DNA of 64,000 bases from an uncultured Smithella sp. (GCA_964394185.1 CAYMWM010000001.1:2233-66232); one strand, 5' to 3'. Positions 24,470 to 59,939 are shown, numbered from the stretch's first letter. The notes: generated from the sequence alone by a model not told the origin. Numbers and translations are program-made.

Positions 24470-25261
24470 TTAACGCATTGCCCGGTTGACCACGTCCTGA
24501 TCGAAATAATTGCAGGACATTCCCGCATCCACCACGATTCCCGTGGCATTGATGCCGCTGGAAACGGGCGAAAGCAGGAATACCACCGTGTTGGCAACCT
24601 CTTCGGTTTTAAGCGCCGCCTTCCGCAGCGTCAATTGTTCGGCAAAAAGATAATTGTTAACGTAGCCCGGAATGCCCGCCGAAGCCGATGTTTTCAAGGG
24701 GCCGGCGCAAACGGCATTGACCCTGACTTTGGATATTTCCGATAAAGATTTTGCCAGAAATGCCACGGTCGCATCCAGTGCGGCCTTGATGGGTCCCATG
24801 TACCCGTAAGCCGTCGCGCGGGTGCTGCTGATGGATATGGTGACGATGGATGCGTTTTCTTCAAAAGAATTTTTCAGGGCGTTTGCGAGGGTGACCAGCG
24901 ACAAGCAGGATATGTTTGTCGCCTGAAGAAAATCCTTTACATTGGTTTCAAGAAAGGGTTTGAGGCCTTCGCTGTAATTGGCAAAAGCAATGGAATGGAC
25001 AAAGCCCGCAAGCTTGATGTTGTTATTCAGGAAGTACTCTCCGAGTTGGCGGATGCTTTCGGGATTTTCCACATCACACATCAAAACGGTGCTCTCGGGA
25101 AAAAGCTTTTGCGCTCTGTCCCGATTATCCTCGTTTTGCACGGAAAATACAACGCGCGCCCCGTTATCCATCAGTCCTCTGGCGACAAAGTACGCGACGC
25201 TCTTTTTGTTGGCAACACCGGTGACGAAAAATGTTTTACCCGAAACCTGCAGAAAGTCCAT
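24470..25261 (-). CDS. fabI: Enoyl-ACP reductase (FabI type)
   Basis: Aligns by eye to E. coli FabI: FVTGVANKKSVAY, GFVHSIAFA, YGYMGPIKAALD (Tyr/Lys), NAVCAGPLKT. Confidence 0.85.
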   Translation of the reverse strand: MDFLQVSGKTFFVTGVANKKSVAYFVARGLMDNGARVVFSVQNEDNRDRAQKLFPESTVLMCDVENPESIRQLGEYFLNNNIKLAGFVHSIAFANYSEGLKPFLETNVKDFLQATNISCLSLVTLANALKNSFEENASIVTISISSTRATAYGYMGPIKAALDATVAFLAKSLSEISKVRVNAVCAGPLKTSASAGIPGYVNNYLFAEQLTLRKAALKTEEVANTVVFLLSPVSSGINATGIVVDAGMSCNYFDQDVVNRAMR

Positions 25262-25273
25262 ATCAGCCTCTCA

Positions 25274-25687
25274 CTATTGGTGCGGGAGCAGCGCCCCCTG
25301 AAATATAATTTTTAAAATCAGTTTGTCGCCAATCCTGATGGTTCCGCTCATATAAAAAGCGTTATCAAGCTTGTCATCGAGCGTTACCGTAATGGTCAGC
25401 GTATCACCGGGTCTGGCGAAATTTTTAAACTTGGCATCTTTTATCCGGGCCACGACCCCCAATCCCGGCTGTTTTTCGCCTCCCATTAAAATCGCGCCCG
25501 TCTGGAAGCAGGCCTCGCACAATAAAACACCGGGCATAATGGGATTGCCGGGGAAATGTCCCTGAAAAAAATATTCGTCATCCCGGAGGGTTCTTTGCGT
25601 CGTAATTGTATTGCCTTCACGGCTGATAATCTTATCAACAAAAAGAAACGGCGGGCGCTGAGGGATAGCGGCAAGAACTTCGTCCAT
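25274..25687 (-). CDS. fabZ: 3-hydroxyacyl-ACP dehydratase (FabZ/FabA hotdog)
   Basis: PPFLFVDKI...FFQGHFPGNPIMPGVLLCEA. Confidence 0.8.
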   Translation of the reverse strand: MDEVLAAIPQRPPFLFVDKIISREGNTITTQRTLRDDEYFFQGHFPGNPIMPGVLLCEACFQTGAILMGGEKQPGLGVVARIKDAKFKNFARPGDTLTITVTLDDKLDNAFYMSGTIRIGDKLILKIIFQGALLPHQ

Positions 25688-26427
25688 TATAGCCCTCCCG
25701 CCACCGTGATGGTTGTTCCGTTGATATAGGAAGCCTCGCGGGTCGCCAGAAAGAGAACCGCATGGGCTATTTCTTCCACCTTGCCGAAACGCTTCTGCGG
25801 AATCATCCTGAGATATTCTTTTTTTTGTTCATCGGGAAGGTCGCTGATTAATTCGGTATCGATAAAACCGGGAGAGACGCAGTTGACGGTAATGCCTTTT
25901 TTAGCCACTTCTTTCGATAGTGATTTGGTCAAAGCCACCTGACCGGCCTTGGATGCCGCGTAATTTGCCTGTCCCTGAAAGCCCATATCGCCTCCCAGCG
26001 AGCTGATGTTGATAATCCGCCCGAAACGATTGGACATAAAACGGGTAATGATTTCCCGCGACATGTAAAAAGTTCCCGAAAGATTGACATCCAGAACCTT
26101 TTGCCATTGCTCATCGGACATCATCGCCGTAAGCCCGTCCTGCCTGATGCCGGAATTGTTAACCAGCACTTCCAGCGAGGGGTATTTTTCGTCCAGATAT
26201 TTAAATAAATCCTTCACCGCCTGCGAAGAAGAGACATCATATTTCTGAATATCCAGCCTTGGCGCGTATTGTTCATTTTTATTTTTAAAATCATTGGCGG
26301 CGGCATCATTGGATGAATAGGTGGCAATGACCGTCGCGCCCGCCTTGAGAAAGGCCGTGACAATTCCCGCTCCAATGCCCCTCGTGCCGCCGGTGACAAT
26401 AACCCTCTGTCCGCTGAAATCAAACAT
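25687..26427 (-). CDS. fabG: 3-oxoacyl-ACP reductase
   Basis: TGGTRGIGAGI, NISS, YAASKAG SDR motifs. Its stop overlaps the fabZ start. Confidence 0.85.
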   Translation of the reverse strand: MFDFSGQRVIVTGGTRGIGAGIVTAFLKAGATVIATYSSNDAAANDFKNKNEQYAPRLDIQKYDVSSSQAVKDLFKYLDEKYPSLEVLVNNSGIRQDGLTAMMSDEQWQKVLDVNLSGTFYMSREIITRFMSNRFGRIINISSLGGDMGFQGQANYAASKAGQVALTKSLSKEVAKKGITVNCVSPGFIDTELISDLPDEQKKEYLRMIPQKRFGKVEEIAHAVLFLATREASYINGTTITVAGGL

Positions 26428-26436: not shown

Positions 26437-27858
26437 TCAGTTTAATTTATCCAAATAGCTATCCACTTCATACGACTGAATCACGCCGTAATTGGCGGCG
26501 CCCAGCCATCCCGACATAATAATGCCGACCGAACCCGTATGAAACAGGCCTTTGATTTCCTTATCCAGTCCCATGGAAATTGCCAGTCCCTCGTGCTTGG
26601 TCCCGAAGGACGAACCCTTCTCGTGATGCGTATATCGTTTGATGGTCACCGGTGTTGCCGCTTCAATATAATCAATTTTTTTGCCGATGCCGGGAATCAC
26701 TTTTTCCAGACTGACCAGCGTTGCCTCAATGAGTTCCTTTTTCTTTGCCTTGTAGTCTTCCTTGCTCAGATTAACCCAGTCTTCGTAACGCGCGTTGGTG
26801 GAAGCGACGATGGTGTACCCGGCATCTGCCAGTTGGGGACGAAGCCTGGGGTAGTAGAGGGAAAACGTCCGGCTGGTCGTTTTCATGGAAAGAAGCTCAT
26901 CTGTCCTGAATTCATCTGCTTCCGAATAAAAAATGAGATCGCCGATGTCTTCGACAACTTCCCCCTGCCTGATGCCCATATAAACCTGACAGGAACTGGT
27001 GTTGAGTCGTACCTTCCTGACCTTTTCCATAAACTGAGGCGTGAATTTGTCTTCGCCGACCAGATTGAAAATAGTGCCGATGAGATTGCCGTTGGAAAGA
27101 ACCGATTTGGAAGAAATAAAATCTCCGCCTACCTCAACCCCCTTGCAGACGTTATTCTCGACGACAATTTTATCCACTTTGGACTTGAGACGGATATCAA
27201 CATTATTGCGCAGAAGCTCTTCCTCCATCATCTGAATCACCAGATCCGTGCCGCCTTGAAAAGTAAAAACCCCTTTGCTCATAAAATTGGAAAAAACGAT
27301 GCCGTAGGTAATGGCCGGGTCTTCAAGCGTCGAACCATTGGCGTAGACAATCGGTTCAATCAGGAAACGATGGACATCTTTTCTGCCGGGGAAAAAACTC
27401 TCCAAAAGTTCCCCGTTGGTCATCTCCTTGTTGTCGTAGTAATTCATGTTCATGATGAGCTTGAAAAAATTATCAACCTGCTCGGGTGCAACTTTAAAAT
27501 CATTGATGAGCTTGCTGGTGAAATTCTCCACGGTGAAATCGCTTTCTATCGAATACATGGGATTGATAAAACGAACCCTTTTGAGTTGAACGATTTTATT
27601 GGCGATTTCCCTGCTCCAGTATTTTTTACAGGTTTTGACCATGCCCACGGGAAATCCATGCAGCGATACATCGAAAATGTGTTTTCCTTTCCGGTGAAAC
27701 CAGGTCGCGAATCCGCCCAGTTTGTCATGGGCTTCGAGCAATAAAATCTTGCGTCCGCCTTTTGCCATCTTATTGGCGGCGGTCAATCCTCCCAGTCCTC
27801 CGCCGATAATAATGACGTCATAATTTTGTGTAATTTTATCTTTATTGTTCAAAAGCAT
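26437..27858 (-). CDS. Phytoene-desaturase-family FAD-dependent oxidoreductase (copy 2)
   Basis: YDVIIIGGGLGGLTAANKMAKGGRKILLLEAHDKLGG dinucleotide fold. CrtI/amine-oxidase-like length (473 aa). Confidence 0.8.
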   Translation of the reverse strand: MLLNNKDKITQNYDVIIIGGGLGGLTAANKMAKGGRKILLLEAHDKLGGFATWFHRKGKHIFDVSLHGFPVGMVKTCKKYWSREIANKIVQLKRVRFINPMYSIESDFTVENFTSKLINDFKVAPEQVDNFFKLIMNMNYYDNKEMTNGELLESFFPGRKDVHRFLIEPIVYANGSTLEDPAITYGIVFSNFMSKGVFTFQGGTDLVIQMMEEELLRNNVDIRLKSKVDKIVVENNVCKGVEVGGDFISSKSVLSNGNLIGTIFNLVGEDKFTPQFMEKVRKVRLNTSSCQVYMGIRQGEVVEDIGDLIFYSEADEFRTDELLSMKTTSRTFSLYYPRLRPQLADAGYTIVASTNARYEDWVNLSKEDYKAKKKELIEATLVSLEKVIPGIGKKIDYIEAATPVTIKRYTHHEKGSSFGTKHEGLAISMGLDKEIKGLFHTGSVGIIMSGWLGAANYGVIQSYEVDSYLDKLN

Positions 27859-28116: not shown

Positions 28117-29148
28117 CTACCATTCGACTCCCAGCATGATTGAATTGAGGCCGGAACCGATGCCCAGTAAACCTACCTTGCTCCCTTTGGGAATCTTCTT
28201 TTGCTCATCAAAAATATTTAACGTAATCGGCAGGGCGGATGCTCCGGTATTGCCCAGATATTGATACGTGATAAAGGTTGGACAATTGTCGAGCTTCAAT
28301 ATTTGTCTTAAAAGCGCTTCGTGCGCCACTCCGACCTGATGGCCGACAAAATAATCAACATCATCATTGGTCCACTTCAGCACCCGTTTTGTTTCTTCCC
28401 ATGTTTTCTCGGCCAGAGCAATGCCGGATTTCATCAGCTCTTCGGAATCGGTTTCCATCATTAATGATGATGTATCACCGCCGCCGCGGCAAAGAACATT
28501 GGCCGATGAATCAACCATTGAGGCTCCTCCCAGCAGCAAATGACCTTCCGGAACACAGTTTTTGTGCGATATCGTATAAGCAACCGCAGCAGCGCCAATC
28601 GTTAAATTCGCGATATATTTTTTAATGCTTTTTCTGGTGATGCTATGATCATTTAACAGATGTTCCATGGTTTGCAGCAGGAGCGGCCCGCCGTTTTCAC
28701 CGGAAACAATAAGAGCGTGTTTGATTAAACCCTGCTCAATCATATTGGCGGCAACCACAAAGGAACTCATCATGCCCAGACAGGCGTTGGACAAATCAAA
28801 GAACATGGTATGTTCCCGCAGTCCCAGATTATAATGAACAATCGAGGAAGTTGATGGTTCCAGATAATCGCGGCACACAGATGCGTGGATGATCAAGTCA
28901 ATATCCTCCGGTTTCACGACATTTTTTGCAAAAAGATTTTTAGCGGCTTGAGTGGACAGATCGCTGGGCATTGTTCCGGGAGGCCAGTAACGCCTTTCTT
29001 TAATTCCCGTCATCATTTCAATCCTGCCGGCGGGAAGTTTAAGGCGTTCATAAACCGGCGCGAGCCTTTCTTCGATTTCAGTCGAAGTCATTATGGTTTC
29101 AGGAATATGATAGGCAAATGACGAAATAACAACATTTTTGAATTTCAT
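28117..29148 (-). CDS. fabH: 3-oxoacyl-ACP synthase III (FabH-like)
   Basis: Start moved to ATG 29148 (MKFKNVV), in an ATGA overlap with the upstream stop. Cys-His-Asn triad contexts SNACLG, VGHQVG, LGNTGASA. Confidence 0.8.
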   Translation of the reverse strand: MKFKNVVISSFAYHIPETIMTSTEIEERLAPVYERLKLPAGRIEMMTGIKERRYWPPGTMPSDLSTQAAKNLFAKNVVKPEDIDLIIHASVCRDYLEPSTSSIVHYNLGLREHTMFFDLSNACLGMMSSFVVAANMIEQGLIKHALIVSGENGGPLLLQTMEHLLNDHSITRKSIKKYIANLTIGAAAVAYTISHKNCVPEGHLLLGGASMVDSSANVLCRGGGDTSSLMMETDSEELMKSGIALAEKTWEETKRVLKWTNDDVDYFVGHQVGVAHEALLRQILKLDNCPTFITYQYLGNTGASALPITLNIFDEQKKIPKGSKVGLLGIGSGLNSIMLGVEW

Positions 29149-30530
29149 GATTTTTCTCCATCCATCAGGCAATGCAGATTGGCCATTGAAATACCGCTGA
29201 GCATGGCGCCGACTATTCCCAGGAATCCCTGATCGGTACCGCAGATAAAAAGATTTTTTATGCCGGTTCTGCCGTCCCGGGACTTTTGCGTGGTTCCATA
29301 AACCGCTCCCTGAAAATGACCGGTATAGCGGGTGATGGTCTTGGGAGTAAAAACATCATGATAAAGAAGGTTGGCCTGAAAGTTTGGGAACATTTTGGCT
29401 ATTAACTTCATCGCTTCATCACAGACCTCTTTTTTTCTCGAGAGATATGTTTTTCTGTCCAGTTCATTCCATTTTTCAAAATTGGCAATAAACGTGACGC
29501 GAATTAATCCTTCCTCATAGTCGTCATAACCGAAATTGTTCGGGAAGCAAATCACGGCGCTTTGGTAATCACACAGCGTCTGCGGTTTTTGATAATGATA
29601 TTTTTCATTTTCATTGGAAAATACAATGGTTTCTTGAATGCCGAATTCGCAGGGCTTCTTGTCAAAGAATAAAATGGTTTCCGTAAAGCTCATATTGCCG
29701 ATGGCGGGAGATTCCTGCCCCTCGGTAACAATGTTCATCGTTTCCGGCAGACCGATGGAGGACATGACTTTGTTGGCCACAAGTTTTTCACCAGAATCCA
29801 ATGTGACGCCTTTCACAACACCATTTTCCACATCTATTTTTTTGATACCGGTTCCCAGGCGCAGTTCGCCGCCCAGTTGGGTATATCTTTCGAGAAGTAA
29901 ATCGATGACCAGACGAACCCCGTTTTTGGGGCGGCTGAAACCTTCCAGATAAATGCTTTTAAACATGATGACAAACTGGGAAAAATCCATGTCGTTTTCC
30001 CAGGCGCTTCCGTAAATCAGCAGGGGGCAGAAAAGCATTTCCAGCAATTTTTCGTCGGTAATAATTTCGCGGACCCTTTCTTTCGCGCTCTGAGGCTTAT
30101 TGTTCAGATTAACCTCATCGAAGTTTTTGACGAGTTCAAGAAGTCTTGCAAAATTATCCTGCTGGCCCGGAAAGGCTCTGGCTATCTCTCCGGTGAGTAA
30201 TTGCGGATTATTGGAAAAAGAAAGATTGCATCCGGGAAATGCTACACATGAGAAATTCTGCTGGGACAAATCCAGTTTTTCGTACGGTATTCTTAATTGC
30301 TTGAGCAGTTTTGTTAAGGGGCGGCCTCTTTCACCCTTTTGGGCAAAATTGGTCATGGCATGCAAACCTACATCCAGCCTTCTGCCCTGCCGTTCATAAT
30401 AGGAATTAAGACCGCCGGGTACTTTATGCCGCTCCAGAATACACACCTTGTGATCGTACATGGCCAGTCTGATGCCTGCCGCCAGACCGGACATGCCCGC
30501 GCCTATGATCAGCGTATCATAATTCGTCAT
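29145..30530 (-). CDS. Phytoene-desaturase-family FAD-dependent oxidoreductase (copy 1)
   Basis: YDTLIIGAGMSGLAAGIRLAMYDHKVCILERHKVPGG, 461 aa. Confidence 0.8.
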   Translation of the reverse strand: MTNYDTLIIGAGMSGLAAGIRLAMYDHKVCILERHKVPGGLNSYYERQGRRLDVGLHAMTNFAQKGERGRPLTKLLKQLRIPYEKLDLSQQNFSCVAFPGCNLSFSNNPQLLTGEIARAFPGQQDNFARLLELVKNFDEVNLNNKPQSAKERVREIITDEKLLEMLFCPLLIYGSAWENDMDFSQFVIMFKSIYLEGFSRPKNGVRLVIDLLLERYTQLGGELRLGTGIKKIDVENGVVKGVTLDSGEKLVANKVMSSIGLPETMNIVTEGQESPAIGNMSFTETILFFDKKPCEFGIQETIVFSNENEKYHYQKPQTLCDYQSAVICFPNNFGYDDYEEGLIRVTFIANFEKWNELDRKTYLSRKKEVCDEAMKLIAKMFPNFQANLLYHDVFTPKTITRYTGHFQGAVYGTTQKSRDGRTGIKNLFICGTDQGFLGIVGAMLSGISMANLHCLMDGEKS

Positions 30531-30793
30531 TATGCGGCTAATGCGAACTTGGGTCCCAGATACTCAATGCAACTTTTCAATGTCGCGAGTTTTATGTAAT
30601 CTTCTGTGGGCACTTCGATTTTATAACGCTTCTTGAGTTCCATCACCACATCCAGAAAATCCATGGAATCCAAATCAAGCTGTTCTCTTAATCTTACATT
30701 GTCATCAAGATTGGTAAGATTCTCGGGATCTTCATCAACGGCTATGTCGGCGATGATTTCAATGATTTTCTTTCTTAAGGTCTGGTAGTCCAT
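30530..30793 (-). CDS. Acyl carrier protein (divergent, not AcpP-like)
   Basis: 87 aa, LDLDSMDFLDVVMEL phosphopantetheine-Ser context. Its stop overlaps the next start. Confidence 0.8.
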   Translation of the reverse strand: MDYQTLRKKIIEIIADIAVDEDPENLTNLDDNVRLREQLDLDSMDFLDVVMELKKRYKIEVPTEDYIKLATLKSCIEYLGPKFALAA

Positions 30794-32826: not shown

Positions 32827-32856
32827 AATAAAATTCAATGATAAAATTCTTGATTA

Positions 32857-32892
32857 TGTAAAAGAGGGGGCAGTTTTTCAACTTACCCCCTC
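32857..32892 (-). terminator. Intrinsic terminator after the FKBP gene
   Basis: Minus strand reads GAGGGGG-N15-CCCCCTC followed by TTTTAC. Confidence 0.5.
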
Positions 32893-53085: not shown

Positions 53086-54123
53086 TTGACAACTTCAGAA
53101 ATAACATCAGCCGGTAAACCTTTTGTTCATTATCATGCCGCTCACTGCGAAACCGGCGTTACTGCCGCCTTATTGCGTGACAGGGGACTGGATATCAGCG
53201 AAGCAATGATTTTCGGCATCGGCAGTGGCGTTTTTTTCGGCCATTTTCCTTTTGTAAAAGTGATGGGTCTTCCCATTACAACCTATCGTATTCAGCCGGC
53301 AGCCATTTTTCGTAAAGCGGCCAAAAGACTGGGGTGGAAATTTGTCACACAACGTTTTCGTAATGCGCAGAAGGGTATGGACGAACTGAAGCGCGTGCTC
53401 GGATCCGGTCAGATTGTGGGAGTAACCACAAACATCTACTGGCTTTCCTATATTCCCAATCGTTTCCGTTTTCAATTCAACGGCCACAATATTGTTGTTT
53501 TACGCGAGATCGGAGGCGGCTTTCGCGTAAGCGACCCTGTTCTGGCCGATCCGGTGGATTGTTCAGAGGAAGACCTAATCAGGGCGCGTTTCGCACGTGG
53601 CCCCCTGGAGCCTCATGGATTTATGTATTATCCGTTATCTTTTAATCTTAATCCCGATTTACATAGAGCCTCTCTGGAAGGAATGCTTGATACCTGCAAT
53701 ATGATGCTTAGAATTCCTTTGCCGATTATCGGTATGCGCGCCATTCGATTTCTGGCAAAAAGAGTTATTAAATTCGAACATACATATGGGTTTGAGGAGG
53801 GCTGCAGGCAGTTGGGAACAATTGTTCGCATGCAGGAGGAAGTTGGCACTGGTGGCGCCGGATTCCGCTATATGTATGCTGCTTTTTTACAGGAAGCTGC
53901 GGAACTGTTTGGTTCCGACCAACTTCGCGAGTTATCCCGGGAAATGACAGCCATCGGTGATATCTGGCGCGAATTTGCCGTTACGTCCGCACGTATTATA
54001 AAAAAGAGAGGAAACCATGACGCGACCTTTGCCAAGGCCGGCGGACTCATGTTGATTTGCGCCGGTCGGGAGGAAGAACTTTTTAAAAACCTGCGGGACG
54101 TCGCGGGTCAACTGAAATCATGA
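53086..54123 (+). CDS. BtrH-N-like (papain/C39-like fold) plus DUF4872-like protein
   Basis: TTG start after AAAGGA. FVHYHAAHCETGVTAALL N-terminal Cys motif as I recall for BtrH-like proteins. Family assignment from memory. Confidence 0.55.
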   Translation: MTTSEITSAGKPFVHYHAAHCETGVTAALLRDRGLDISEAMIFGIGSGVFFGHFPFVKVMGLPITTYRIQPAAIFRKAAKRLGWKFVTQRFRNAQKGMDELKRVLGSGQIVGVTTNIYWLSYIPNRFRFQFNGHNIVVLREIGGGFRVSDPVLADPVDCSEEDLIRARFARGPLEPHGFMYYPLSFNLNPDLHRASLEGMLDTCNMMLRIPLPIIGMRAIRFLAKRVIKFEHTYGFEEGCRQLGTIVRMQEEVGTGGAGFRYMYAAFLQEAAELFGSDQLRELSREMTAIGDIWREFAVTSARIIKKRGNHDATFAKAGGLMLICAGREEELFKNLRDVAGQLKS

Positions 54124-54863
54124 AAGCGCTGGAAATTTCGCAAATAACTTTTTCCTATGATCGGGCGGTTGATAAATCGTCAGGTGGAGAAATCGAATAC
54201 GCCCTGCGTGATTTTTCCATGTCGGTGGAGGCAGGCGAGATTCATGCGCTTTTGGGACCTAACGGCGCGGGCAAGACCACTCTGATGCGCCTGATAACCG
54301 GACAGTTACGGAGTTATTCGGGTAGCATATTTATCCATGGCAGCAAAAACGATTCCAAAGAAGCTTTAAATTACATAGGTTATGCTCCTCAGCCGGTATC
54401 AGTGTACACATCATTAACGGCGCAGGAGAACCTGCACGTTTTCGGCGTTATGGCCGGGTTGTTCCAGGAAAATCTGGAAGAAAGGTCAAAAGCTGTTCTG
54501 GAAGAAACGGGACTATTTCCTTACGCGCAAAAAAGGGCATCAAGCTATTCCGGCGGGATGCTGCGCCGCCTGAATCTTGCCGTGGCGCTTTTGCATTCAC
54601 CAAGGCTTTTGCTTCTGGATGAACCGACGGTGGGTGTCGACCCGCAGAGCCGAAACAATATTTATGAAACGCTCAATAAATTGAATGCCGATGGCATAGC
54701 AATTGTCCTGTGCACTCATATTATGGAAGAAGCACAGCGCATGTGCTCTAAAGTGACGTTGCTGGATAGAGGGTCTGTAATTTTTGCCGGCGATATGAGC
54801 GAAATCGATAATCTGGAAAAATTCTTCCTGGAGCATACAGGGCGGGGATTGCGTGACGATTAA
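54120..54863 (+). CDS. ABC transporter ATP-binding protein
   Basis: GPNGAGKTT (Walker A), YSGGMLRRL (signature), LLLLDEP (Walker B). ATGA overlap with the upstream gene. Confidence 0.9.
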
Positions 54864-54919
54864 GATTAACTTAAAACATTACTTGAAATTGATGAGCATT
54901 TTTTTGGGGCAATAAATTA

Positions 54920-56038
54920 ATGTTCAGAAAATTAATGGAACTCATTCGCAAAGAGATGCTGGTTTTGTTGCGCGGACGCCAGACCATCCCAATTTTATTT
55001 ATCATGCCCATGGCGCTTATCTTCTTTCTGTCTCTGGCATTGCAGGGTGTTTATACGGAAAAAGTAACCGGTCAGCAGATCCCCGTTGTCATCGAAGTTA
55101 CCGGTAATTCTCCCAAGTCGATATTGCTGGCAAAGAAATTAAGCGAACACAAATTAATTAAGCGCGTCCAGCGGCCACAGGGTTTGAGCAACGATAAGCT
55201 TTTTGAATCCGGCAGGGCGCATGTGGTAATTTATATACCGGATGGATTTGGCGAAGGGACAAAACCTGTGGAAGTGGAATATGATCCCGTTCTTGACGCT
55301 GGTTACAAAGCCGCCGCCCGTTCGCTCATTACCAGTCTGACTGCCGGCGTGGTTATGGGCATCGATGATATCGAAGCCCTGTCTGCCGGTTTTATTGTTG
55401 AGAAAACAAAACACAATAAAAGTTATCCCAGCCCGCTTCAGCACACGGTGCCCGGCTGGTCAATTTTCGCGATGTTTTTTATCGCCATTCCCATGTCCGG
55501 CGGATTTCTTCGGGAAAAAAACGACGGCACTCTGCAACGGATTTTCACCTATCCGGTTGATACCGGCACCGTTATACTGGGAAAACTTGTTCCTTATTAT
55601 TTGATTAATTTGATTCAGTTTGCTTTAATGCTTATGGTCGGCGTCTATATTATGCCATTATTTATTAAAATTCCCTTCTCCCTGGGAGCGCATCCGTGGC
55701 ATATTATTCCGGTAACGCTTGCCGTCGCGGCTGCTTCCACAGGATTCGGCGTGCTGGTGGCGTCAACAGCGCGCTCTCCGGAACAGTCTTCCGCTCTGGC
55801 GGCAACAGGTTCGGTGTTGATGGCAGTATTCGGCGGAATCATGGTGCCGCATGTGGTTATGCCGCTCATCATGAAAAAACTGGCGATGATATCGCCCATG
55901 TTCTGGGCGCAGCAGGCTTATCTGGATATTTTTGTACGCGATGCTGATTTTAGTTCTATTTTACCGAAGCTGGTCATCTTAACATTTTTTGCGCTTATCT
56001 GTTTTTATATAGCTGGGAGGAAAGTAAAATGGATGTAA
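54920..56038 (+). CDS. ABC-2-type transporter permease
   Basis: 372 aa. N-terminal TM helix, large loop, then five C-terminal TM helices, typical of the ABC-2 family. Confidence 0.8.
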   Translation: MFRKLMELIRKEMLVLLRGRQTIPILFIMPMALIFFLSLALQGVYTEKVTGQQIPVVIEVTGNSPKSILLAKKLSEHKLIKRVQRPQGLSNDKLFESGRAHVVIYIPDGFGEGTKPVEVEYDPVLDAGYKAAARSLITSLTAGVVMGIDDIEALSAGFIVEKTKHNKSYPSPLQHTVPGWSIFAMFFIAIPMSGGFLREKNDGTLQRIFTYPVDTGTVILGKLVPYYLINLIQFALMLMVGVYIMPLFIKIPFSLGAHPWHIIPVTLAVAAASTGFGVLVASTARSPEQSSALAATGSVLMAVFGGIMVPHVVMPLIMKKLAMISPMFWAQQAYLDIFVRDADFSSILPKLVILTFFALICFYIAGRKVKWM

Positions 56039-56340
56039 ATCAAAGTTTAAAAGAGTTGAACGTGTCTTCTCGGGACGAATTAATTTTCAAGCTCAAAGAG
56101 TTGATAATAAGAGCATGTGAAGTGACGGACGTAAAACCGGAAGATGTTCCTACCGATGTTCCCTTTATCGGCGGTTCCGGACCTCTGATGCTTGATAGTC
56201 TCGACGCGATGGAAATTGCCATGGAGATAAGGCATGTATTTGGCGTGGAATTGAAGAACGCCTCGACAGCCGCCAAAGCAATGCAATCATTTGATACGCT
56301 GGCCGATTTTATTATCAGTGCTCCGAAGGTTAAAAAATGA
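56029..56340 (+). CDS. Acyl carrier protein (second, divergent)
   Basis: LMLDSLDAMEIAMEI Ser attachment context. Its start overlaps the permease stop by 10 nt. Confidence 0.75.
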   Translation: MDVNQSLKELNVSSRDELIFKLKELIIRACEVTDVKPEDVPTDVPFIGGSGPLMLDSLDAMEIAMEIRHVFGVELKNASTAAKAMQSFDTLADFIISAPKVKK

Positions 56341-57500
56341 ACAACAAAGAAATTTATGTGCGCGGTTGGGGCGCTGTAAATTCATTGGGATGGGATTCTC
56401 AGAAATCCGCCCGCAATTTGATTGCGGGAAATGTTCTGCCAGCCAAGAAATGTAGCTCCTCTCATTTAACTAATAACGATTTAAAAGCTTTTGAGGTAAC
56501 CTATTCGGGAAACCCTCTGGATAAATCAATGGCAATGCTGGAGCGCGCTCTGGAAGAAGCCTTCCAGCGGGGAAAAATGTCGATTCAAGAAATTACGGAG
56601 TCCAGCATACTGGTGGGAACAACAGGCGGCCTGTTTATCCGTAACGAGCATGAATTTACCAAAGCCGTACACGAAAATCCTGATCAGGAATCACCGGCCA
56701 TCTCCTGCCGCAACCGGGGCCCGGGTGAAGTAGCCGACTTTATTGTCAATAAATACGGCATCAGGGGTATTGCTCTGACTTTTAGCATGGCCTGTGTATC
56801 AAGTTCTCACGCTTTGGTAGTTGCCGCCGATATCCTGAATCAGGGGAAAGCTAAACGGGTGATTATCGTTGGTTTTGAGCCGCTGCTGAATATGACCCTG
56901 CAAGGATTTTCGAGCCTTCTTCTTTTCGATTACGATCAATGCCGGCCGTTTTGTGCGACACGTGCCGGAATGCAAATTGGAGAGGGCGCTGCCGTTATCA
57001 TTCTTGAGGCAGGAACCTTTTCCGAAGCAAAATATAAATTTACGGGCGGCTATCTGTACAACGATATAAAAAGCCTTACATCCGCGGGCATTGACGGATT
57101 AACTGTCAGCGAGGTCGTCGGACAAACCCTGATGTTGGCGCAGGTATCAGCCGATGATGTTGTCGCTATCAAGGCGCACGGCACGGGCACAAGAGATAAT
57201 GACCTGTCGGAGGGCAGGGGGTTAACCAAGGTTTTTGGAGCAAAACTGCCTCCCGTGGTTTCTCTCAAAGGCTCTGTAGGCCATACCCTAGGCGCGGCAG
57301 GAGCGGTGGAAACTGCGCTTTGGCTTTCCTGCTTAGGAGAAGGATTTATTCCGCGAAGCTTTGGTTTTTCACAAATCGATCCGGAAATCGGCTTTACACC
57401 GTCACAGGTAAACATTAAAGCGCGCGAAGGCGCTTATTTATTTACATTCTTCGGTTTTGGCGGAACCTGTACGAGTTATTTAATTATCAAGGAGAGATAA
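56337..57500 (+). CDS. Beta-ketoacyl synthase (second KS)
   Basis: FSMACVSSSHAL (Cys), IKAHGTGTRDND (His). ATGA overlap with the ACP stop. Confidence 0.8.
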   Translation: MNNKEIYVRGWGAVNSLGWDSQKSARNLIAGNVLPAKKCSSSHLTNNDLKAFEVTYSGNPLDKSMAMLERALEEAFQRGKMSIQEITESSILVGTTGGLFIRNEHEFTKAVHENPDQESPAISCRNRGPGEVADFIVNKYGIRGIALTFSMACVSSSHALVVAADILNQGKAKRVIIVGFEPLLNMTLQGFSSLLLFDYDQCRPFCATRAGMQIGEGAAVIILEAGTFSEAKYKFTGGYLYNDIKSLTSAGIDGLTVSEVVGQTLMLAQVSADDVVAIKAHGTGTRDNDLSEGRGLTKVFGAKLPPVVSLKGSVGHTLGAAGAVETALWLSCLGEGFIPRSFGFSQIDPEIGFTPSQVNIKAREGAYLFTFFGFGGTCTSYLIIKER

Positions 57501-57504: not shown

Positions 57505-58488
57505 TTGTCTTCATTCCTGAATCAATCAAACCCCGATGCATTTATGCCGGTCATCGCCGCAAGTTATATTGGTCCGCATCTTATACCGAATAACGACGCG
57601 CTTTGGGAAGAAAGTGAACTGCCGCTCAATGCCGACGGATTGGTCAATGAAATCATGGGACAGCCGATGCGTAGGGCCGGACGATTTATCAAGATGGTTG
57701 CCTGCGGAGGGCTGGCCTGTCTGCAGCAAGTATCTCTCAATTACTTAAAAGGAAAAAAGACAGGAATATTCCTGGCGACAGGCCTGGGTAATATTGATGA
57801 AATCATGCCCTTTATAACTGAGGTGTTCAAGCATGGTGGCGGATTTCCGAGCCCTAATCAATTCGCCAATTCGGTCAGCAATGCCGCGGCATTTGTTTTG
57901 GCCAAAATTTGCGAAGTCACGGGGAACGTTCTGACCATTTCTCAGGAAGAATTTTCTTTTGAAGCGGCCCTCTGGATGGCGCAGAGCTATCTTCAAAGCG
58001 GTCAAATAGAATTGGCCCTGGTCGGCGGATGCGATATTTTTACACCAACCGTTGAAGAATACCGTGAACGGGTCAATCTGACATGCAGCAACGCCCGCAA
58101 GATGCCGATGGGTGAAGGCAGCTCCTGGCTCCTGCTGGGGAAAGATGAAGTTAAGAATATTGGTAAAATTATGGTGGTGGATTTTGACGATAATGTTATT
58201 GAACCTCCCGACCTTTCAGACAATAAAAATATTGTATCGATTTTGATCGAGCCAAACAGCCCAAACCCGATTTTTCTACCTGGATTTCGCATGAAAAGTA
58301 AAGAAATCAACTTCTGGAAAGAAAAAGGTTGGGAGGTAGAAGATTACTTGCCCTGCTGCGGAATTCATTCGACGGCGGCGGCGTTCGGTATAGCGCGCGC
58401 CCTGCGGGAAAAATCAAATTCTCTTTTCGTTCACTATAATTGTCACGCTTCAGGCAGGCGGGCGTTTGTTCTAGCGTCAAAAAAATAA
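57505..58488 (+). CDS. Cys-less KS-like partner with Gln at the active-site position (KS-Q/CLF-like)
   Basis: TTG start after GGAGAG. NVLTISQEEFSFEAAL aligns with the T-x-A-C-x-S KS motif, placing Gln at the Cys position. Shorter (327 aa). Confidence 0.65.
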   Translation: MSSFLNQSNPDAFMPVIAASYIGPHLIPNNDALWEESELPLNADGLVNEIMGQPMRRAGRFIKMVACGGLACLQQVSLNYLKGKKTGIFLATGLGNIDEIMPFITEVFKHGGGFPSPNQFANSVSNAAAFVLAKICEVTGNVLTISQEEFSFEAALWMAQSYLQSGQIELALVGGCDIFTPTVEEYRERVNLTCSNARKMPMGEGSSWLLLGKDEVKNIGKIMVVDFDDNVIEPPDLSDNKNIVSILIEPNSPNPIFLPGFRMKSKEINFWKEKGWEVEDYLPCCGIHSTAAAFGIARALREKSNSLFVHYNCHASGRRAFVLASKK

Positions 58489-58490
58489 TT

Positions 58491-59939
58491 ATGGTTTCCT
58501 CTCAACAAAAAAAAAGAGTCGTTCTTGTTCATCCGCGAGGATTCAACTGGTTTCCGGGGAAGCGCGATATTACAGATATTGCCAACCGGATGGTGCCGCA
58601 GGGACTGCTTTCGCTTGCCTCATATCTTGCAGCGCAGGGTCATGATGTTTTCGTCTATGATTGTCTTGGACCGGACGCTCCCCTGGATTTACAAAAACAG
58701 GCGCAGGCGATTTTGGCCTATAACCCTCAGATTGTCGGGTTTTCGGCAACAACATCGTCTTTTCCCGATGCCGCCGAGCTTGCCCAAATCATTAAAAATA
58801 GTTCTTCTGACATCAAAACACTATGCGGCGGGGTCCACGTTTCCGCACTGGAAAAAATTCTTTTGCAGGACTATCCCGCATTTGATTTTCTTGCCGCCGG
58901 AGAAGGCGAGGAAACCATAGCCGAGCTTGCCGAAGGATGTGATCCTGCTGCAATCAAAGGTCTTATCTGGCGGAGAAAAGAAGAAATCGTAGCCAACGAG
59001 CCGCGTCTCAAAATACCGGATTTGGATTTTCTGCCGTTTCCTGCCTATGAAAAGCTTAAAGGATTTCCCCGTGATTACCATCTGCCGCTGTTCAGTTATA
59101 TCCAGGCACCCGGCGCGACGATGATAACCTCACGCGGCTGTATGTATCAATGCTCCTATTGCGATCGTTCCGTGTTCAAAAAAGGTTTTCGCTATAATTC
59201 CGCCGCCTACATTTATGAGCATATGAAATATTTGCGGGAAAAATTCGGGGTCAGGCACATCAACATTTACGATGATTTGTTCACCGCCAACCGCGAACGG
59301 ATTGTCGAGCTTGGCGAAAAACTCAGCCGCTATCCCCTGGGGATTCATTTCAACTGCGCGGTCCGTGTCGGTTACACCGATGATGACTTGTTGAAAATGC
59401 TGAAAGATGCCGGCTGCCTGATGGTGTCTCTTGGAATTGAATCCGCCGATCCGGATATGCTCAAGCGGCATAAATCGGGAGTGTCTCTTGATGAGGTACG
59501 CGATACCGTGCGGAGGATTCAAAAAGCGGGATTGCGTGTCAAGGGACTTTTTATGATGGGACTGCCGGGCGAAACGGAAGAATCCGTCAAGCAAACATCC
59601 AATTTTATTATTTCACTCGGACTGGATGATATGAACATGGCCAAATTTACGCCTTTCCCCGGCGCGCCGCTGTGGGGTACGATAAAAGACGACGGGTCAT
59701 TTAATGAAGACTGGCGGCTGATGAATTGTCTGAATTTTGTTTTTGTGCCCAGAGGAATTGCTTCCAAGGAAAGACTCGATCAACTCTATAATGAACATGT
59801 GAAGCGTTTTTATTCCGACAAAGCGTGGCGGGAAAGATTCCGCAAGCGCATCTGGCAGCACCGCAGAAGTCTGATTTATTTACTAAGACACCTGCCTTCC
59901 TTCTGGTCTGCAAAAAATCAGTTCGAACCTGAAAAATAA
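58491..59939 (+). CDS. B12-binding-domain radical SAM enzyme (class B), copy 2
   Basis: ATG 58491 (MVSSQQKK), 3 nt after the upstream stop. Cobalamin-binding-type N-domain, then TSRGCMYQCSYCDRS (Cx3Cx2C). Confidence 0.85.
   Translation: MVSSQQKKRVVLVHPRGFNWFPGKRDITDIANRMVPQGLLSLASYLAAQGHDVFVYDCLGPDAPLDLQKQAQAILAYNPQIVGFSATTSSFPDAAELAQIIKNSSSDIKTLCGGVHVSALEKILLQDYPAFDFLAAGEGEETIAELAEGCDPAAIKGLIWRRKEEIVANEPRLKIPDLDFLPFPAYEKLKGFPRDYHLPLFSYIQAPGATMITSRGCMYQCSYCDRSVFKKGFRYNSAAYIYEHMKYLREKFGVRHINIYDDLFTANRERIVELGEKLSRYPLGIHFNCAVRVGYTDDDLLKMLKDAGCLMVSLGIESADPDMLKRHKSGVSLDEVRDTVRRIQKAGLRVKGLFMMGLPGETEESVKQTSNFIISLGLDDMNMAKFTPFPGAPLWGTIKDDGSFNEDWRLMNCLNFVFVPRGIASKERLDQLYNEHVKRFYSDKAWRERFRKRIWQHRRSLIYLLRHLPSFWSAKNQFEPEK

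Follow-up and report, generated by a model that had tools for sequence, protein, structure and literature searches.

Three adjoining acyl-chain gene modules with probably separate histories in a Smithellaceae genome

The window analyzed here, a stretch of 64,000 nucleotides from an uncultured Smithella sp., carries between positions 24,470 and 59,939 a dense array of acyl-chain genes on both strands, which had been taken for one lipid supercluster in an earlier note on this DNA. The question is whether the two strands serve a single product or whether independent gene sets became neighbors. The 35-kb span probably represents three modules (A, B and C) with separate evolutionary histories. All three are of kinds that have been noticed before but are still uncharacterised, and they stand side by side in some Smithellaceae only. 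The nearest relatives of the radical SAM proteins rSAM1 and rSAM2 and of the flavoprotein PD2 come from Smithella, Smithellaceae or Syntrophaceae MAGs; hence, the genome is a MAG of the Smithellaceae (Syntrophales) and not that of an anammox bacterium.

Gene content of the span

Family membership was judged by NCBIfam model cut-offs together with Pfam, and catalytic triads were judged by alignment. These profile searches assigned acyl-chain, tailoring or export functions to 26 of the 32 ORFs with 100 aa or more (Table 1), close to the about 25 of 33 genes estimated before. The proposed count of six condensing enzymes was reproduced, comprising three FabF-type KS with an intact triad, two triad-less partners and one KAS-III-type protein; their types held as well, except that the supposed FabH-like protein is of the OleA type. 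Two ACPs (serine motifs DSM and DSL), FabG-, FabZ- and FabI-like genes, two CrtI-family flavoproteins (PD1 and PD2, both in module A) and the MIO lyase with its Ala-Ser-Gly motif were recovered by profile or motif, and the same is true for the thioesterase, FakA-like kinase, AMP-ligase, LpxL-type acyltransferase, GT2, MMPL-methyltransferase, BtrH-like and ABC-2 genes. Both presumed B12-binding radical SAM proteins carry the CxxxCxxC motif, whereas the B12 domain is clear in rSAM2 (73.5 bits) and marginal in rSAM1 (32.8 bits). ATGA/TAATG overlaps were confirmed at eight junctions. As stated earlier, no FabD, PPTase or PlsX turned up among those ORFs of the remaining window that were scanned, and within the span the KR, DH and ER genes are confined to the minus strand.

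Table 1. Features of the span, with strand and basis of assignment (scores in bits, given against model cut-offs where two values appear)
Feature	Position	Strand	Basis or remark
Module A	24470-32056	-	self-contained FAS-like operon around an OleA-type thiolase
FabI-like enoyl reductase (SDR)	24470..25261	-	PF13561 180 bits
FabZ/ApeI-like dehydratase	25274..25687	-	PF07977
FabG-like ketoreductase	25687..26427	-	PF13561, PF00106, PF08659
PD1, CrtI/CrtISO-family flavoprotein	26437..27858	-	Amino_oxidase, NAD_binding_8
OleA-type head-to-head thiolase	28117..29172, likely start 29148	-	PDB matches, motifs, NF006720
PD2, CrtI-family flavoprotein	29145..30530	-	Amino_oxidase 75.8 bits
ACP1, dedicated, DSM motif	30530..30793	-	PF00550
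FabF-like KS, Cys/His/His triad	30815..32056	-	Pfam, alignment
RNase T-like exonuclease, FKBP isomerase, PilZ protein	32332..34351	-	Pfam; spacer, in no module
Module B	34879-52480 plus 58440-59939	+	Smithellaceae form of a radical SAM-containing, aryl-polyene-like cluster
KS1, near-canonical FabF-type KS, Cys/His/His	34879..36120	+	NF005589 passed, 421 vs 387
KS2, Cys-less FabF partner, CLF-like, Ala/Ala/Glu, Lys kept	36104..37354	+	alignment
rSAM1, divergent radical SAM, B12-like N-terminal domain, CRFNCYPC	37444..38682	+	Pfam, motif
MIO aromatic amino-acid ammonia-lyase or aminomutase	38642..40258, likely start ~38699	+	PF00221 504 bits, ASG motif
Hotdog (4HBT_2) thioesterase	40255..40674	+	Pfam
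FakA(Dak2)-DegV fusion, fatty-acid kinase plus fatty-acid-binding module	40674..42395	+	PF02734, PF21645, PF02645
Secreted hypothetical protein, 169 aa	42630..43139	+	signal-like N-terminal sequence
GT2 glycosyltransferase, polyprenyl-phosphate/DPM-like	43229..43945	+	PF00535
Insertion: APC-type permease (660 aa) and 115-aa hypothetical protein	44021..46347	-	PF13520
MMPL/RND exporter fused to class I SAM methyltransferase	46702..49770	+	PF03176 and methyltransferase families
FadD-like AMP-ligase, module B accessory	49838..51574	+	PF00501
LpxL/lysophospholipid-type acyltransferase	51602..52480	+	PF03279
Module C	52663-58488	+	dialkylresorcinol-type cassette that lacks DarA and DarB; insertion in B
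DarG-family protein	52663..53064	+	NF053536 132 vs 70
BtrH-related acyltransferase DarH	53086..54123	+	NF053550 398 vs 300; PF14399, PF16169
ABC ATPase and ABC-2 permease	54120..56038	+	Pfam; order as darF, darI in Azoarcus
ACP2, DSL motif	56029..56340	+	PF00550; NF006617 42 vs 70
KS3, Cys/His/His triad	56337..57500	+	Pfam, alignment
CLF-like partner, no catalytic triad	57505..58488	+	PF13723 24.4 bits vs cut-off 25
rSAM2, B12-binding radical SAM	58440..59939, likely start 58491	+	PF04055 99 bits, PF02310 73.5 bits

Distribution and linkage of the modules

Module A is an autonomous operon that is present in other phyla with no plus-strand genes nearby. Halobacteriovorax sp. GB3 (L085) has it, as do many metagenome contigs (L086, L100-L166), and its FabF-like KS shares 58-76% identity with the gene that opens the module A loci outside Smithellaceae, including Halobacteriovorax. 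PD2 orthologs show 75-95% identity in Smithellaceae and 49-65% in Halobacteriovorax, Bacteriovorax and metagenomes, PD1 is kept at 55-87% across module A loci, and orthologs of the FabI-like gene (85-88%) occupy the equivalent operon position in L081, L083, L084 and L091. Module B is a separate family that is widespread in Desulfobacterota: tblastn was positive for 515 stretches, and the rSAM1 orthologs of 67-86% identity, present in 80 or more species genomes of this phylum, span Syntrophales, Desulfobacterales and Desulfobulbales, isolates included. Outside the family the two halves were never found side by side. Of the 29 module A loci from outside Smithellaceae whose flank on the module B side extends for 8 kb or more, none has a module B gene there, and none of the 49 rSAM1 loci whose upstream flank is complete carries module A.

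Within the family the adjacency is variable. Seven Smithellaceae loci (the window, L083, L091-L094 and L097) share the same divergent layout with an identical set of spacer genes, PD2 identity being 77-84% in the six others, while A and B are unlinked in L001, L004, L006, L007, L009, L081/L082, L084, L096 and L099; in the L081/L082 pair they lie 1.1 Mb apart on one 1.3-Mb contig. The operon of module A is flanked by RNase T and MobB in L081, L083 and L084. The layout and spacer shared by seven loci indicate that the juxtaposition was inherited in a part of the family, and it could be functional.

These distributions do not sustain one cooperative supercluster, in which both strands would make a single product and module A would give ACP, KR, DH, ER and desaturase to the plus-strand genes. 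We regard such a cooperation as possible but unlikely, despite the six other contigs with divergent adjacency, the further genome with A and B on one contig (probably also several more) and the fact that KR, DH and ER exist in the window only in module A, whereas module B of Smithellaceae starts at KS1 and, apart from module C, lacks ACP, KR and DH genes. Besides the unlinked loci and the isolated occurrence of module A in other phyla, the Ole-type core of module A follows its own logic, and between the halves stand three housekeeping genes that have promoter-like sites of their own, together with a terminator-like hairpin; such sites lie between the RNase T gene and the FabF-like KS. Moreover, KR and DH activities for the Smithellaceae version of module B could come from the housekeeping FAS as well as from module A. 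Other orders keep FabG, an ApeP-like DH and ACPs inside the cluster. In Desulforhopalus the additional genes encode a KR, an ApeP-like DH, ACPs, a KS-CLF fusion, a 4CL-like ligase and a LolA2-like protein, in keeping with an aryl-polyene-like nature of module B.

The plus-strand modules

KS1 and KS2, whose genes overlap by 17 nt, resemble a KS/CLF-like pair; KS1 matches 9s5h_B (probably amxFabF2, as we assume) with 322 bits, and KS2 shares with 9s5h_C (Val/Asn/Glu) the His-to-Glu change in TGE and the motif PN.V.NAPA..ASI. Among 33 rSAM1 loci with both flanks, the partners were FakA-DegV (24), GT2 (23), the LpxL-type acyltransferase (19), the thioesterase (16) and the lyase (11). The nearest PDB match of rSAM1 is AprD4 (E = 1e-4), and with this relative and the marginal B12 domain its use of cobalamin appears doubtful; rSAM2, kept at 77-94% identity across Smithellaceae, is nearest to AprD4, TokK, CysS and TsrM. 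The MIO protein shows the PAL/TAL/TAM signature NQD and not the HAL signature QED, with FH at the selectivity switch, and stays below the HutH, BagA and FlxA cut-offs. This signature fits Tyr or Phe as substrate and lyase or mutase activity, and makes an aryl-acrylate starter for module B plausible. The GT2 scored 94 bits with the PpgS model, the MMPL-methyltransferase fusion recurs in L001, L021 and L082, and the secreted 169-aa protein found no family match in the Pfam and NCBIfam profile searches. The AMP-ligase resembles FadD and not 4CL, its best NCBIfam matches being long-chain fatty-acid-CoA ligases below cut-off, and it is inconstant among module B loci (in L008 and L009; missing from L001, L002, L004 and L082). 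The permease insertion is missing between GT2 and MMPL in L001, L002, L004, L009 and L082.

Module C matches the gene order darD-E-F-I-C-J-K of the Azoarcus dialkylresorcinol (DAR) cassette, and its CLF-like protein has Glu (Gln adjacent)/Ser/Glu at the triad positions. In L001 and L082, rSAM2 follows the LpxL-type gene directly without the cassette, hence module C is an insertion.

The likeness to aryl-polyene and flexirubin/DAR clusters noted earlier was borne out, since KS/CLF pairs, thioesterase, GT2, LpxL-like acyltransferase and MMPL exporter are likewise in the span and the DarG-family and DarH models were passed. A genuine pigment of this type, i.e. an aryl-primed conjugated polyene esterified to an outer-membrane lipid or a dialkylresorcinol, seems nevertheless improbable. 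The methyltransferase, the MIO lyase, the proximity of FabG to FlxB (248 bits) and the ApeP-like, LolA2-like and DarB-family genes in relatives would suit it, but DarA, DarB, LolA and an ApeP-type DH are lacking in the window, and the scores with FlxA (289 vs 700), FlxB (cut-off 340) and the flexirubin DarG (113 vs 170) are too low, as are, by far, those with the aryl-polyene-type ACP (42 vs 70) and KS (180 vs 407). Furthermore, an enoyl reductase is encoded, and two or three radical SAM enzymes and FakA-DegV are foreign to known aryl-polyene or flexirubin clusters.

The minus-strand operon

The thiolase of module A aligned in full length with the PDB entries 3ROW, 3S21, 4KU2 and the 5VX and 6B2 series as its top matches (225 bits), compared to at most 79 bits with FabH entries, and passed NF006720 (387 vs 285). 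The OleA motifs RDYLEPST (Glu117), NAC (Cys143), HQV (His285) and GN (Asn315) are kept. In relatives, OleB-, OleC- and OleD-like genes sit directly downstream of the OleA-type gene, ahead of PD1. PD1 reached 120 bits with the carotenoid isomerase model (cut-off 587).

KS, ACP, KR, DH and ER together in one operon could also be read as the housekeeping FAS II, which would have undermined a specialised role of the minus strand; we consider this very improbable. Every member is under its NCBIfam equivalog cut-off: the FabF-like KS reached 288 vs 494 (TIGR03150), the FabZ/ApeI-like gene 99.8 vs 113 and 95.8 vs 155, and the FabG-like gene 278 vs 298 (TIGR01830). ACP1 with 34 vs 70 (TIGR00517) is not AcpP, and the reductase with 172 bits against cut-offs of at least 299 is not a housekeeping FabI. 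Orthologs of the dehydratase carry precomputed matches to PF22818 (ApeI-like). In addition, FabD, PlsX and a canonical FabH are missing, the KAS-III gene is of the OleA type, two CrtI-like genes are embedded, and the operon is scattered in distant groups (49-76% for PD2 and FabF-like KS), often with oleBCD-like genes.

Proposed products and comparison with known systems

None of the relatives has a known product, so all chemical steps given here are what we infer from the gene identities. Most likely, module A makes a head-to-head condensed lipid and modules B and C an exported, radical-SAM-modified envelope lipid. In module A, the type II FAS with its two CrtI-family flavoproteins would form a special, possibly desaturated acyl-ACP, which the OleA-type thiolase would condense head-to-head. 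The OleB/C/D-like proteins of relatives would convert the OleA product to an olefin; the window holds the short form without oleBCD, hence the product should stop at the beta-keto acid or ketone unless oleBCD are located elsewhere in the genome. In module B, the KS/CLF-like FabF pair may build or extend a chain, possibly started with (hydroxy)cinnamate from the MIO lyase, and the two B12-type radical SAM enzymes could alter it by C-methylation or C-C chemistry. The acid, once freed by the thioesterase, might be re-activated by the FakA-DegV fusion (as acyl-phosphate) or the AMP-ligase, attached to a glyco- or phospholipid by the LpxL-type acyltransferase and GT2, and exported by the MMPL-methyltransferase. 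Module C would contribute another ACP-bound chain, which the BtrH-like DarH would transfer.

Ladderanes are known from anammox bacteria only, and a ladderane (cyclobutane) pathway outside this group is the least probable reading: the anammox-type His-to-Glu change in the Cys-less FabF that accompanies a KS, the CrtI-like flavoproteins, the B12-type radical SAM enzymes and a parts list akin to kuste3335-3352 confirm the supposed likeness in parts, but both radical SAM proteins are outside TIGR04072, the hallmark ladderane radical SAM family (48 bits for rSAM1 and 101 for rSAM2 vs 360), the CrtI-like genes are part of the Ole/FAS operon, and the cluster family is spread across Desulfobacterota. 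In this regard, 'ladderane' BGC calls by pipelines are routine in Desulfobacterota, and similar clusters are so labelled.

While the absence of a characterised product for such a cluster was confirmed, its composition is not new. The parts list of module B matches the loci that Rattray et al. (2009) found common to Desulfotalea and Kuenenia, as compared by parts lists and one Desulforhopalus relative; the FASII clusters of Desulfotalea are syntenic with those of Kuenenia, yet no ladderanes were found in Desulfotalea. Finally, KS1 and KS2 are analogous to anammox amxFabF2/amxFabFmut, a KS/CLF-like heterodimer, and Kuste3606 has Val/Asn/Lys/Glu at the sites where KS2 shows the same His-to-Glu change.

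Gene content of the span and relation of its modules

The closest relatives of the radical SAM proteins rSAM1 and rSAM2 and of the CrtI-family flavoprotein PD2 belong to MAGs named Smithella, Smithellaceae or Syntrophaceae (77-95% identity), hence the window host is placed by sequence within the Smithellaceae (Syntrophales, Desulfobacterota) and not among anammox bacteria. The span 24470-59939 contains 32 ORFs of at least 100 aa. Scans with Pfam and NCBIfam bore out the gene inventory of the earlier note almost item by item, and together with motif checks and junction overlaps they confirm what its reader had observed. Overlaps of the ATGA/TAATG type were indeed found at eight gene junctions, and, as had been claimed, no FabD, PPTase or PlsX occurs among the window ORFs scanned. 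The active sites of the ketosynthases (KS) were called by alignment with E. coli FabF; according to this alignment the triad is kept in three KS, KS2 retains the Lys, and the CLF-like protein is devoid of the triad. The ACPs carry DSM/DSL motifs.

Features of the span 24470-59939, with the basis of each assignment and the active-site residues or motifs found
Feature	Position	Strand	Basis
FabI-like ER	24470-25261	-	Pfam/NCBIfam
FabZ-like DH	25274-25687	-	Pfam/NCBIfam
FabG-like KR	25687-26427	-	Pfam/NCBIfam
CrtI-family flavoprotein (PD1)	26437-27858	-	Pfam/NCBIfam
KAS-III-type enzyme (OleA-type)	28117-29172	-	Pfam/NCBIfam, PDB alignment
CrtI-family flavoprotein, second (PD2)	29145-30530	-	Pfam/NCBIfam
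ACP	30530-30793	-	Pfam/NCBIfam
FabF-like KS	30815-32056	-	Pfam/NCBIfam; Cys/His/His
FabF-type KS1	34879-36120	+	Pfam/NCBIfam; Cys/His/His
FabF-type KS2	36104-37354	+	Pfam/NCBIfam; Ala/Ala/Glu
Radical SAM protein rSAM1	37444-38682	+	Pfam/NCBIfam; CxxxCxxC
MIO lyase	38642-40258	+	Pfam/NCBIfam; Ala-Ser-Gly
Hotdog thioesterase	40255-40674	+	Pfam/NCBIfam
FakA-DegV fusion	40674-42395	+	Pfam/NCBIfam
GT2	43229-43945	+	Pfam/NCBIfam
MMPL-methyltransferase fusion	46702-49770	+	Pfam/NCBIfam
AMP-ligase	49838-51574	+	Pfam/NCBIfam
LpxL-type acyltransferase	51602-52480	+	Pfam/NCBIfam
133-aa protein (DarG-family)	52663-53064	+	NCBIfam
BtrH-like protein (DarH)	53086-54123	+	Pfam/NCBIfam
ABC ATPase + ABC-2 permease	54120-56038	+	Pfam/NCBIfam
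ACP	56029-56340	+	Pfam/NCBIfam
KS	56337-57500	+	Pfam/NCBIfam; Cys/His/His
CLF-like protein	57505-58488	+	no triad; PF13723 24.4 bits
B12-binding radical SAM enzyme rSAM2	58440-59939	+	Pfam/NCBIfam; CxxxCxxC

The remaining window ORFs scanned are housekeeping or unassigned genes (alanine racemase, Ddl, GGDEF, ThrC, a beta-lactamase-family protein, MobB and others). The alanine racemase ORF (3680-5644) encodes 654 aa, of which the two racemase domains cover residues 19-377 only; about 270 C-terminal aa have no Pfam match, and its upstream TTG start may be wrong. The low-GC stretch 22000-24000 (0.36 versus about 0.45-0.50 in the flanks), which encodes a HEAT-repeat protein and contains two further ORFs that match no family, lies just upstream of MobB and the minus-strand operon. 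Downstream, about 1.1 kb of low-coding sequence separates the lipid genes from a plus-strand ORF (61086-64000) that runs off the window end; it is longer than 970 aa, shows helicase motifs of the SNF2/DEAD type (GAGKT, DEAH) and looks unrelated to the lipid genes.

The span can be divided into the minus-strand FAS/Ole-type operon (module A), a plus-strand radical SAM cluster beginning with KS1 and ending with rSAM2 (module B), and a DAR-type cassette inside the latter, from the DarG-family to the CLF-like gene (module C). The earlier note had regarded it as a single unprecedented supercluster and had proposed the co-conservation of its halves as a check. Such co-conservation is not general: none of 49 species-genome loci of rSAM1 with full upstream flank, nine of them Smithellaceae-type, has module A beside it, and none of 29 module A loci outside the Smithellaceae, each with 8 kb or more of flank towards the B side, carries module B genes. 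Unrelated genes, for example those for a TRAP transporter, an amidase or MerR, stand upstream of KS1 in those rSAM1 genomes. The divergent layout of the window, with [FKBP/PilZ]-RNase T-FabF on the strand opposite to KS2-KS1, recurs in six other contigs (L083, L091, L092, L093, L094 and L097; PD2 77-84% identical). Most of them come from different samples, so the adjacency is real and a chimeric assembly was rejected as its cause. It is absent from L084, L096 and L099, and on one 1.3-Mb contig modules A (L081) and B (L082) lie 1.1 Mb apart. By these comparisons, the A/B adjacency is inherited within part of the Smithellaceae and is not a conserved unit. The locus is better described as a variant of known, uncharacterised cluster kinds than as a supercluster of a wholly new category, and the interpretation of the earlier note is only partly supported, its inventory excepted.

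In the window, three unrelated genes separate the halves and there is no common promoter region. The minus strand between the RNase T and FabF-like genes (32187-32303) shows a near-consensus promoter-like site, TTGACA-16-GATAAT, and a terminator-like hairpin (12-bp stem, then a T-rich tail), which would weakly suggest that module A is its own transcription unit. Outside the DAR cassette, module B of Smithellaceae has no ACP, KR or DH of its own, while other orders keep these in the cluster; hence, A and B may still cooperate functionally.

An OleA-type operon on the minus strand

The minus-strand FabF, ACP, FabG, FabZ and FabI all remain below the NCBIfam equivalog cut-offs of the housekeeping FabF, AcpP, FabG, FabZ and FabI. 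These scores and the lack of FabD and PlsX in the window led us to reject the housekeeping type II FAS as identity of module A. The gene previously described as FabH-like is of the OleA type instead. Its protein (28117-29148, the likely start being 29148) aligned over its full length and with 225 bits to PDB entries 3ROW, 3S21, 4KU2 and those beginning with 5VX and 6B2, which we take to be Xanthomonas campestris OleA, compared with at most 79 bits for FabH entries. Moreover, Cys143, His285, Asn315 and the OleA-specific base Glu117 are kept (motifs RDYLEPST, NAC, HQV and GN). The "FabH" of these "ladderane-like" loci is therefore likely OleA, which would correct a mis-annotation.

The operon has the layout (regulator)-FabF-ACP-PD-OleA-[OleBCD]-PD-FabG-FabZ-FabI and sits between RNase T and MobB in Smithellaceae. 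Outside this family it was found in Halobacteriovorax sp. GB3 and many metagenome contigs (PD2 49-61%, FabF-like KS 58-76% identical). In the loci L083-L086 and L091-L100, the slot between the OleA-type gene and the next CrtI-like flavoprotein is filled in canonical oleABCD order by genes for a haloalkane-dehalogenase-like hydrolase (OleB-like), an olefin beta-lactone synthetase-like ligase (OleC-like) and a 2-alkyl-3-oxoalkanoate reductase-like SDR (OleD-like), the latter two missing their equivalog cut-offs (485 vs 850 and 388 vs 580 bits, respectively). In the window no oleB, oleC or oleD adjoins the OleA-type gene, only a gap of 258 bp (27858-28117). The window and L081 have this short form, in which oleBCD were lost or never present. 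Compared with the OleABCD pathway of Xanthomonas and Shewanella, module A is alike in the full-length OleA match, the catalytic residues and, in its relatives, the gene order. However, the window lacks oleBCD, and module A wraps the ole genes in a dedicated FAS (KS, ACP, KR, DH, ER) and two CrtI-family flavoproteins, additions that are missing from canonical ole operons.

It might be that the dedicated KS, ACP, KR, DH and ER together with the CrtI-like flavoproteins, acting in desaturation or isomerisation, produce a special acyl chain, which OleA would then condense head-to-head. On its own, OleA forms a beta-keto acid, which decarboxylates to give a ketone; together with OleBCD it gives an olefin. 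Desulfotalea makes the hydrocarbons C31:8 and C31:9 and has no Pfa synthase (Rattray et al. 2009). The FAS/CrtI/ole make-up of module A recalls these compounds, and an operon of dedicated FAS, two CrtI-like and oleABCD genes may represent a Pfa-independent route to unsaturated head-to-head hydrocarbons. The CrtI-like genes are linked to head-to-head hydrocarbon synthesis and not to the radical SAM genes.

A widespread radical SAM lipid cluster on the plus strand

The distribution of module B was analyzed with rSAM1 in one genome per species, using a narrow alignment as seed that left out paralogues of 33-36% identity as too divergent. The protein itself is divergent: few full-length clusters of a 50%-identity library share more than 40% identity with it. 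The genome scan gave 515 or more tblastn-positive stretches. The best 80 of them, 67-86% identical, belong to Syntrophales, Desulfobacterales (Desulfobacter curvatus DSM 3379, Desulfosarcina variabilis) and Desulfobulbales (Desulforhopalus, Desulfocapsa), and a few to Spirochaetota or Bacteroidota MAGs. The orthologs in the Spirochaetota MAGs L014, L046 and L047 and the Bacteroidota MAG L058 are 70-73% identical and adjoin MMPL, LpxL and GT2 genes in L046 and L047; their occurrence in other phyla points to horizontal transfer of module B or mis-binning.

Partner genes were counted in a tblastn matrix of the 32 window proteins against the 33 rSAM1 loci with both 10-kb flanks. FakA-DegV was found in 24, GT2 in 23, the LpxL-type acyltransferase in 19, the thioesterase in 16, the lyase in 11 and the MMPL-methyltransferase in 9 of these loci. 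A FabG-like gene also occurs in 24/33, yet is only 35-43% identical to that of the window. Accordingly, rSAM1, FakA-DegV, GT2, the LpxL-type acyltransferase and the thioesterase are the core genes, and the window belongs to this rSAM1-type cluster. Six close relatives (L001, L002, L004, L008, L009 and L082) share the order KS1-KS2-rSAM1-lyase-TE-FakA/DegV-GT2-MMPL/MT-(AMP-ligase)-LpxL. They have no counterpart of the genes at window 44021-46347 (minus strand, between GT2 and MMPL), which encode a 660-aa APC-family permease, its C-terminal approximately 170 aa without family assignment, and a 115-aa hypothetical protein. The slot between MMPL-methyltransferase and LpxL varies as well: the window, L008 and L009 have the FadD-like AMP-ligase there, L082 (7655-8998) encodes a 447-aa protein without family match, and in L001, L002 and L004 the slot is empty. 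LpxL is directly followed by rSAM2 (likely start 58491 in the window) in L001 and L082, indicating that module C is an insertion present only in some relatives (L002, L004 and L008 carry it). In L013 and L049, from other lineages, a cassette of weak similarity lies near rSAM1.

Regarding function, PDB sequence searches with rSAM1 and rSAM2 yielded no assignment beyond generic class B, B12-type radical SAM relatives (AprD4, TokK, CysS, TsrM), and the methyltransferase domain gave only weak matches there (best about 27 bits). The MIO enzyme misses the HutH cut-off and shows the "NQD" signature of Phe/Tyr lyases/mutases instead of the histidase "QED", with "Phe-His" at the selectivity switch; it probably supplies (hydroxy)cinnamate or a beta-amino acid. 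This product is a possible starter for module B, where KS1/KS2 may act as a KS/CLF-like heterodimer by analogy with an anammox pair, C-methylation being the default guess for the radical SAM enzymes. Thioesterase and FakA-DegV are conserved neighbours, which suggests a release-and-rephosphorylate handoff via an acyl-phosphate. The LpxL-type acyltransferase and GT2 could then fix the chain to a lipid for export by the MMPL-methyltransferase, while module C might contribute a second ACP-bound chain, with DarH as its transferase and the ABC-2 system as its exporter.

Taken together, we tentatively consider a joint reading, which is possible although rather unlikely to hold in full. Module B and its Desulfobacterota relatives would make an unknown class of envelope lipids, in which an aryl- or short-acyl-primed chain built by the FabF/CLF pair is remodelled by two or three B12-type radical SAM enzymes via C-methylation, cyclisation or cross-linking and handed over as acyl-phosphate by the fused FakA-DegV, with an ancestry common with the anammox ladderane candidates. 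Module A could in addition represent a Pfa-independent, anaerobic route to polyunsaturated head-to-head hydrocarbons such as C31:8/C31:9 of Desulfotalea. If module B does make such a lipid, cultured carriers such as Desulforhopalus, Desulfobacter curvatus and Desulfosarcina variabilis would offer model systems for the action of radical SAM enzymes on fatty-acyl chains, a chemistry that has so far only been proposed, for ladderanes and jawsamycin, among non-isoprenoid lipids.

Ladderane biosynthesis is still unsolved because anammox bacteria are not genetically manipulable. Many Desulfobacterota, cultured isolates among them, carry the related radical SAM/KS-CLF lipid cluster, hence its product could be found in such strains by lipidomics and perhaps genetics. 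What remains of interest is the widely conserved radical-SAM-dependent lipid of module B and the FAS/CrtI/Ole operon, both present in cultured isolates. In Smithella, which are important syntrophic alkane degraders, these products could be of use as lipid biomarkers. As a caution for genome mining, what looks like one long run of lipid genes may consist of independent modules that came to lie side by side in a single lineage.

Relation to aryl-polyene, DAR/flexirubin and ladderane loci

Three signatures had been attributed to the span, and each of them stands in part. With the aryl-polyene (APE) clusters of Proteobacteria and Bacteroidota it shares a KS with CLF-like partner, dedicated ACPs, a hotdog thioesterase, GT2, an LpxL-type acyltransferase, an MMPL exporter, a methyltransferase and an AMP-ligase. 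However, Pfam and NCBIfam scans of the span revealed neither a KR nor an ApeI/ApeP dehydratase pair in the plus-strand cluster, and no LolA-like carrier was matched among the 32 span proteins, while one is present in Desulforhopalus sp. IMCC35007 (L018). A KR and a single FabZ/ApeI-like DH are encoded in module A, together with a FabI-like enoyl reductase, an activity missing from APE clusters; the window further adds two B12-type radical SAM enzymes, the MIO lyase and FakA-DegV. Its proteins miss the APE-type family models. The CLF-like protein stays just below the PF13723 cut-off of 25. The AMP-ligase, not constant in relatives, resembles long-chain fatty-acid-CoA ligases and not 4CL/PaaK, and may or may not activate an aryl acid.

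Regarding the dar/flx clusters of Azoarcus (arcuflavin), Chitinophaga and Flavobacterium, the likeness resides in module C and in the possession of an MIO lyase, which flexirubin clusters have in FlxA. The 133-aa protein passes the DarG-family model NF053536 (132 vs 70) and the BtrH-like protein the DarH equivalog NF053550 (398 vs 300), and the order DarG-DarH-ABC-permease-ACP-KS-hypothetical/CLF equals darD-E-F-I-C-J-K of the Azoarcus arcuflavin DAR cluster. In contrast, DarA and DarB, which define resorcinol formation, are absent: no span protein reaches the DarA model, and the sole KAS-III gene scores 29-40 bits against DarB cut-offs of 450-550. The lyase (FlxA, 289 vs 700), the KR (FlxB, 248 vs 340) and DarG miss the flexirubin equivalog cut-offs. 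A tblastn search of plasmids with DarH gave only 27-31% BtrH-domain matches (Streptomyces, Acinetobacter) without useful DAR/APE context.

By the one curated marker, TIGR04072, the locus is not a ladderane cluster: rSAM1 reaches 48 and rSAM2 101 bits against a cut-off of 360, so the window is a variant without that hallmark. Ladderanes are reported only from anammox bacteria; the window comes from a Smithellaceae MAG. The candidate-ladderane claim holds for the active FabF with a triad-less partner, in which the His-to-Glu change of Kuste3606 and 9s5h_C recurs. In L018, from a non-anammox isolate, one side comprises a DarB-family KS and, at 1906-7201, the TIGR04072 "ladderane-type" B12 radical SAM gene (392 vs 360) together with genes for a CrtI-like flavoprotein, an ACP and a KS-CLF fusion; the TIGR04072 gene neighbours the rSAM1 ortholog. 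The other side comprises an ApeP-like DH, FabG, a LolA2-like protein, rSAM1, a 4CL-like ligase, FakA-DegV, GT2, LpxL, ACP, KS, a PlsC-type acyltransferase and two further radical SAM enzymes, one of the B12 and one of the SPASM type. Judged by these genes, L018 has an aryl-polyene-like architecture with radical SAM additions, and such Cluster-I-like parts outside ladderane producers sit awkwardly with descriptions of that cluster as anammox-unique. Desulforhopalus is presumably a genus close to Desulfotalea.

The loci of Kuenenia stuttgartiensis (kuste3335-3352, kuste3603-3608) and the syntenic ones of Desulfotalea psychrophila comprise radical SAM enzymes, phytoene-dehydrogenase-like genes, a phenylacetyl-CoA/F390 ligase, a glycosyltransferase, an Mmp-like membrane protein, a non-canonical FabF and a SAM methyltransferase (Rattray et al. 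2009). Compared by their descriptions, these parts lists match that of the window, with several FabF paralogues including non-canonical ones with His-to-Glu, extra ACPs, radical SAM enzymes, a SAM methyltransferase, phytoene-desaturase-like flavoproteins, an acyl/aryl-CoA ligase, a glycosyltransferase and an Mmp-like membrane protein in common. The window differs by lacking a TIGR04072-type enzyme, and its MIO lyase, FakA-DegV fusion, MMPL-methyltransferase fusion and DAR cassette are not listed for Kuenenia. The idea that a Kuenenia candidate gene had been shown to be a phenylalanine ammonia-lyase was dropped, because Javidpour et al. 2016 do not use the term "ammonia lyase". Pipeline "ladderane" calls are common in Desulfobacterota and other phyla and unexplained. 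With the matching parts list of 2009 and these routine calls, the kind of cluster to which module B belongs is already known. The earlier statement that no characterised cluster has this composition hence holds for the product, on which no paper was found in the literature on TIGR04072, ladderane-like and aryl polyene/radical SAM clusters, but not for the composition. The Genome Biol Evol 2025 anammox paper and the amxFabZ paper make no mention of non-anammox homologues.

Finally, KS1/KS2 can be compared with anammox amxFabF2/amxFabFmut, presumably the pair in PDB 9s5h. This pair of anammox Cluster I is a KS/CLF-like heterodimer (Granatino et al. 2026 preprint). The window pair differs in its reversed order (KS first), in Ala/Ala/Glu of KS2 versus Val/Asn/Glu, and in having no adjoining amxACP or amxFabZ; its scores against canonical FabF are as high as against the anammox pair. 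The likeness consists in an active FabF-type KS translationally coupled to a triad-less FabF, and in the TGE (His-to-Glu) change and the PN.V.NAPA motif that KS2 has in common with 9s5h_C.
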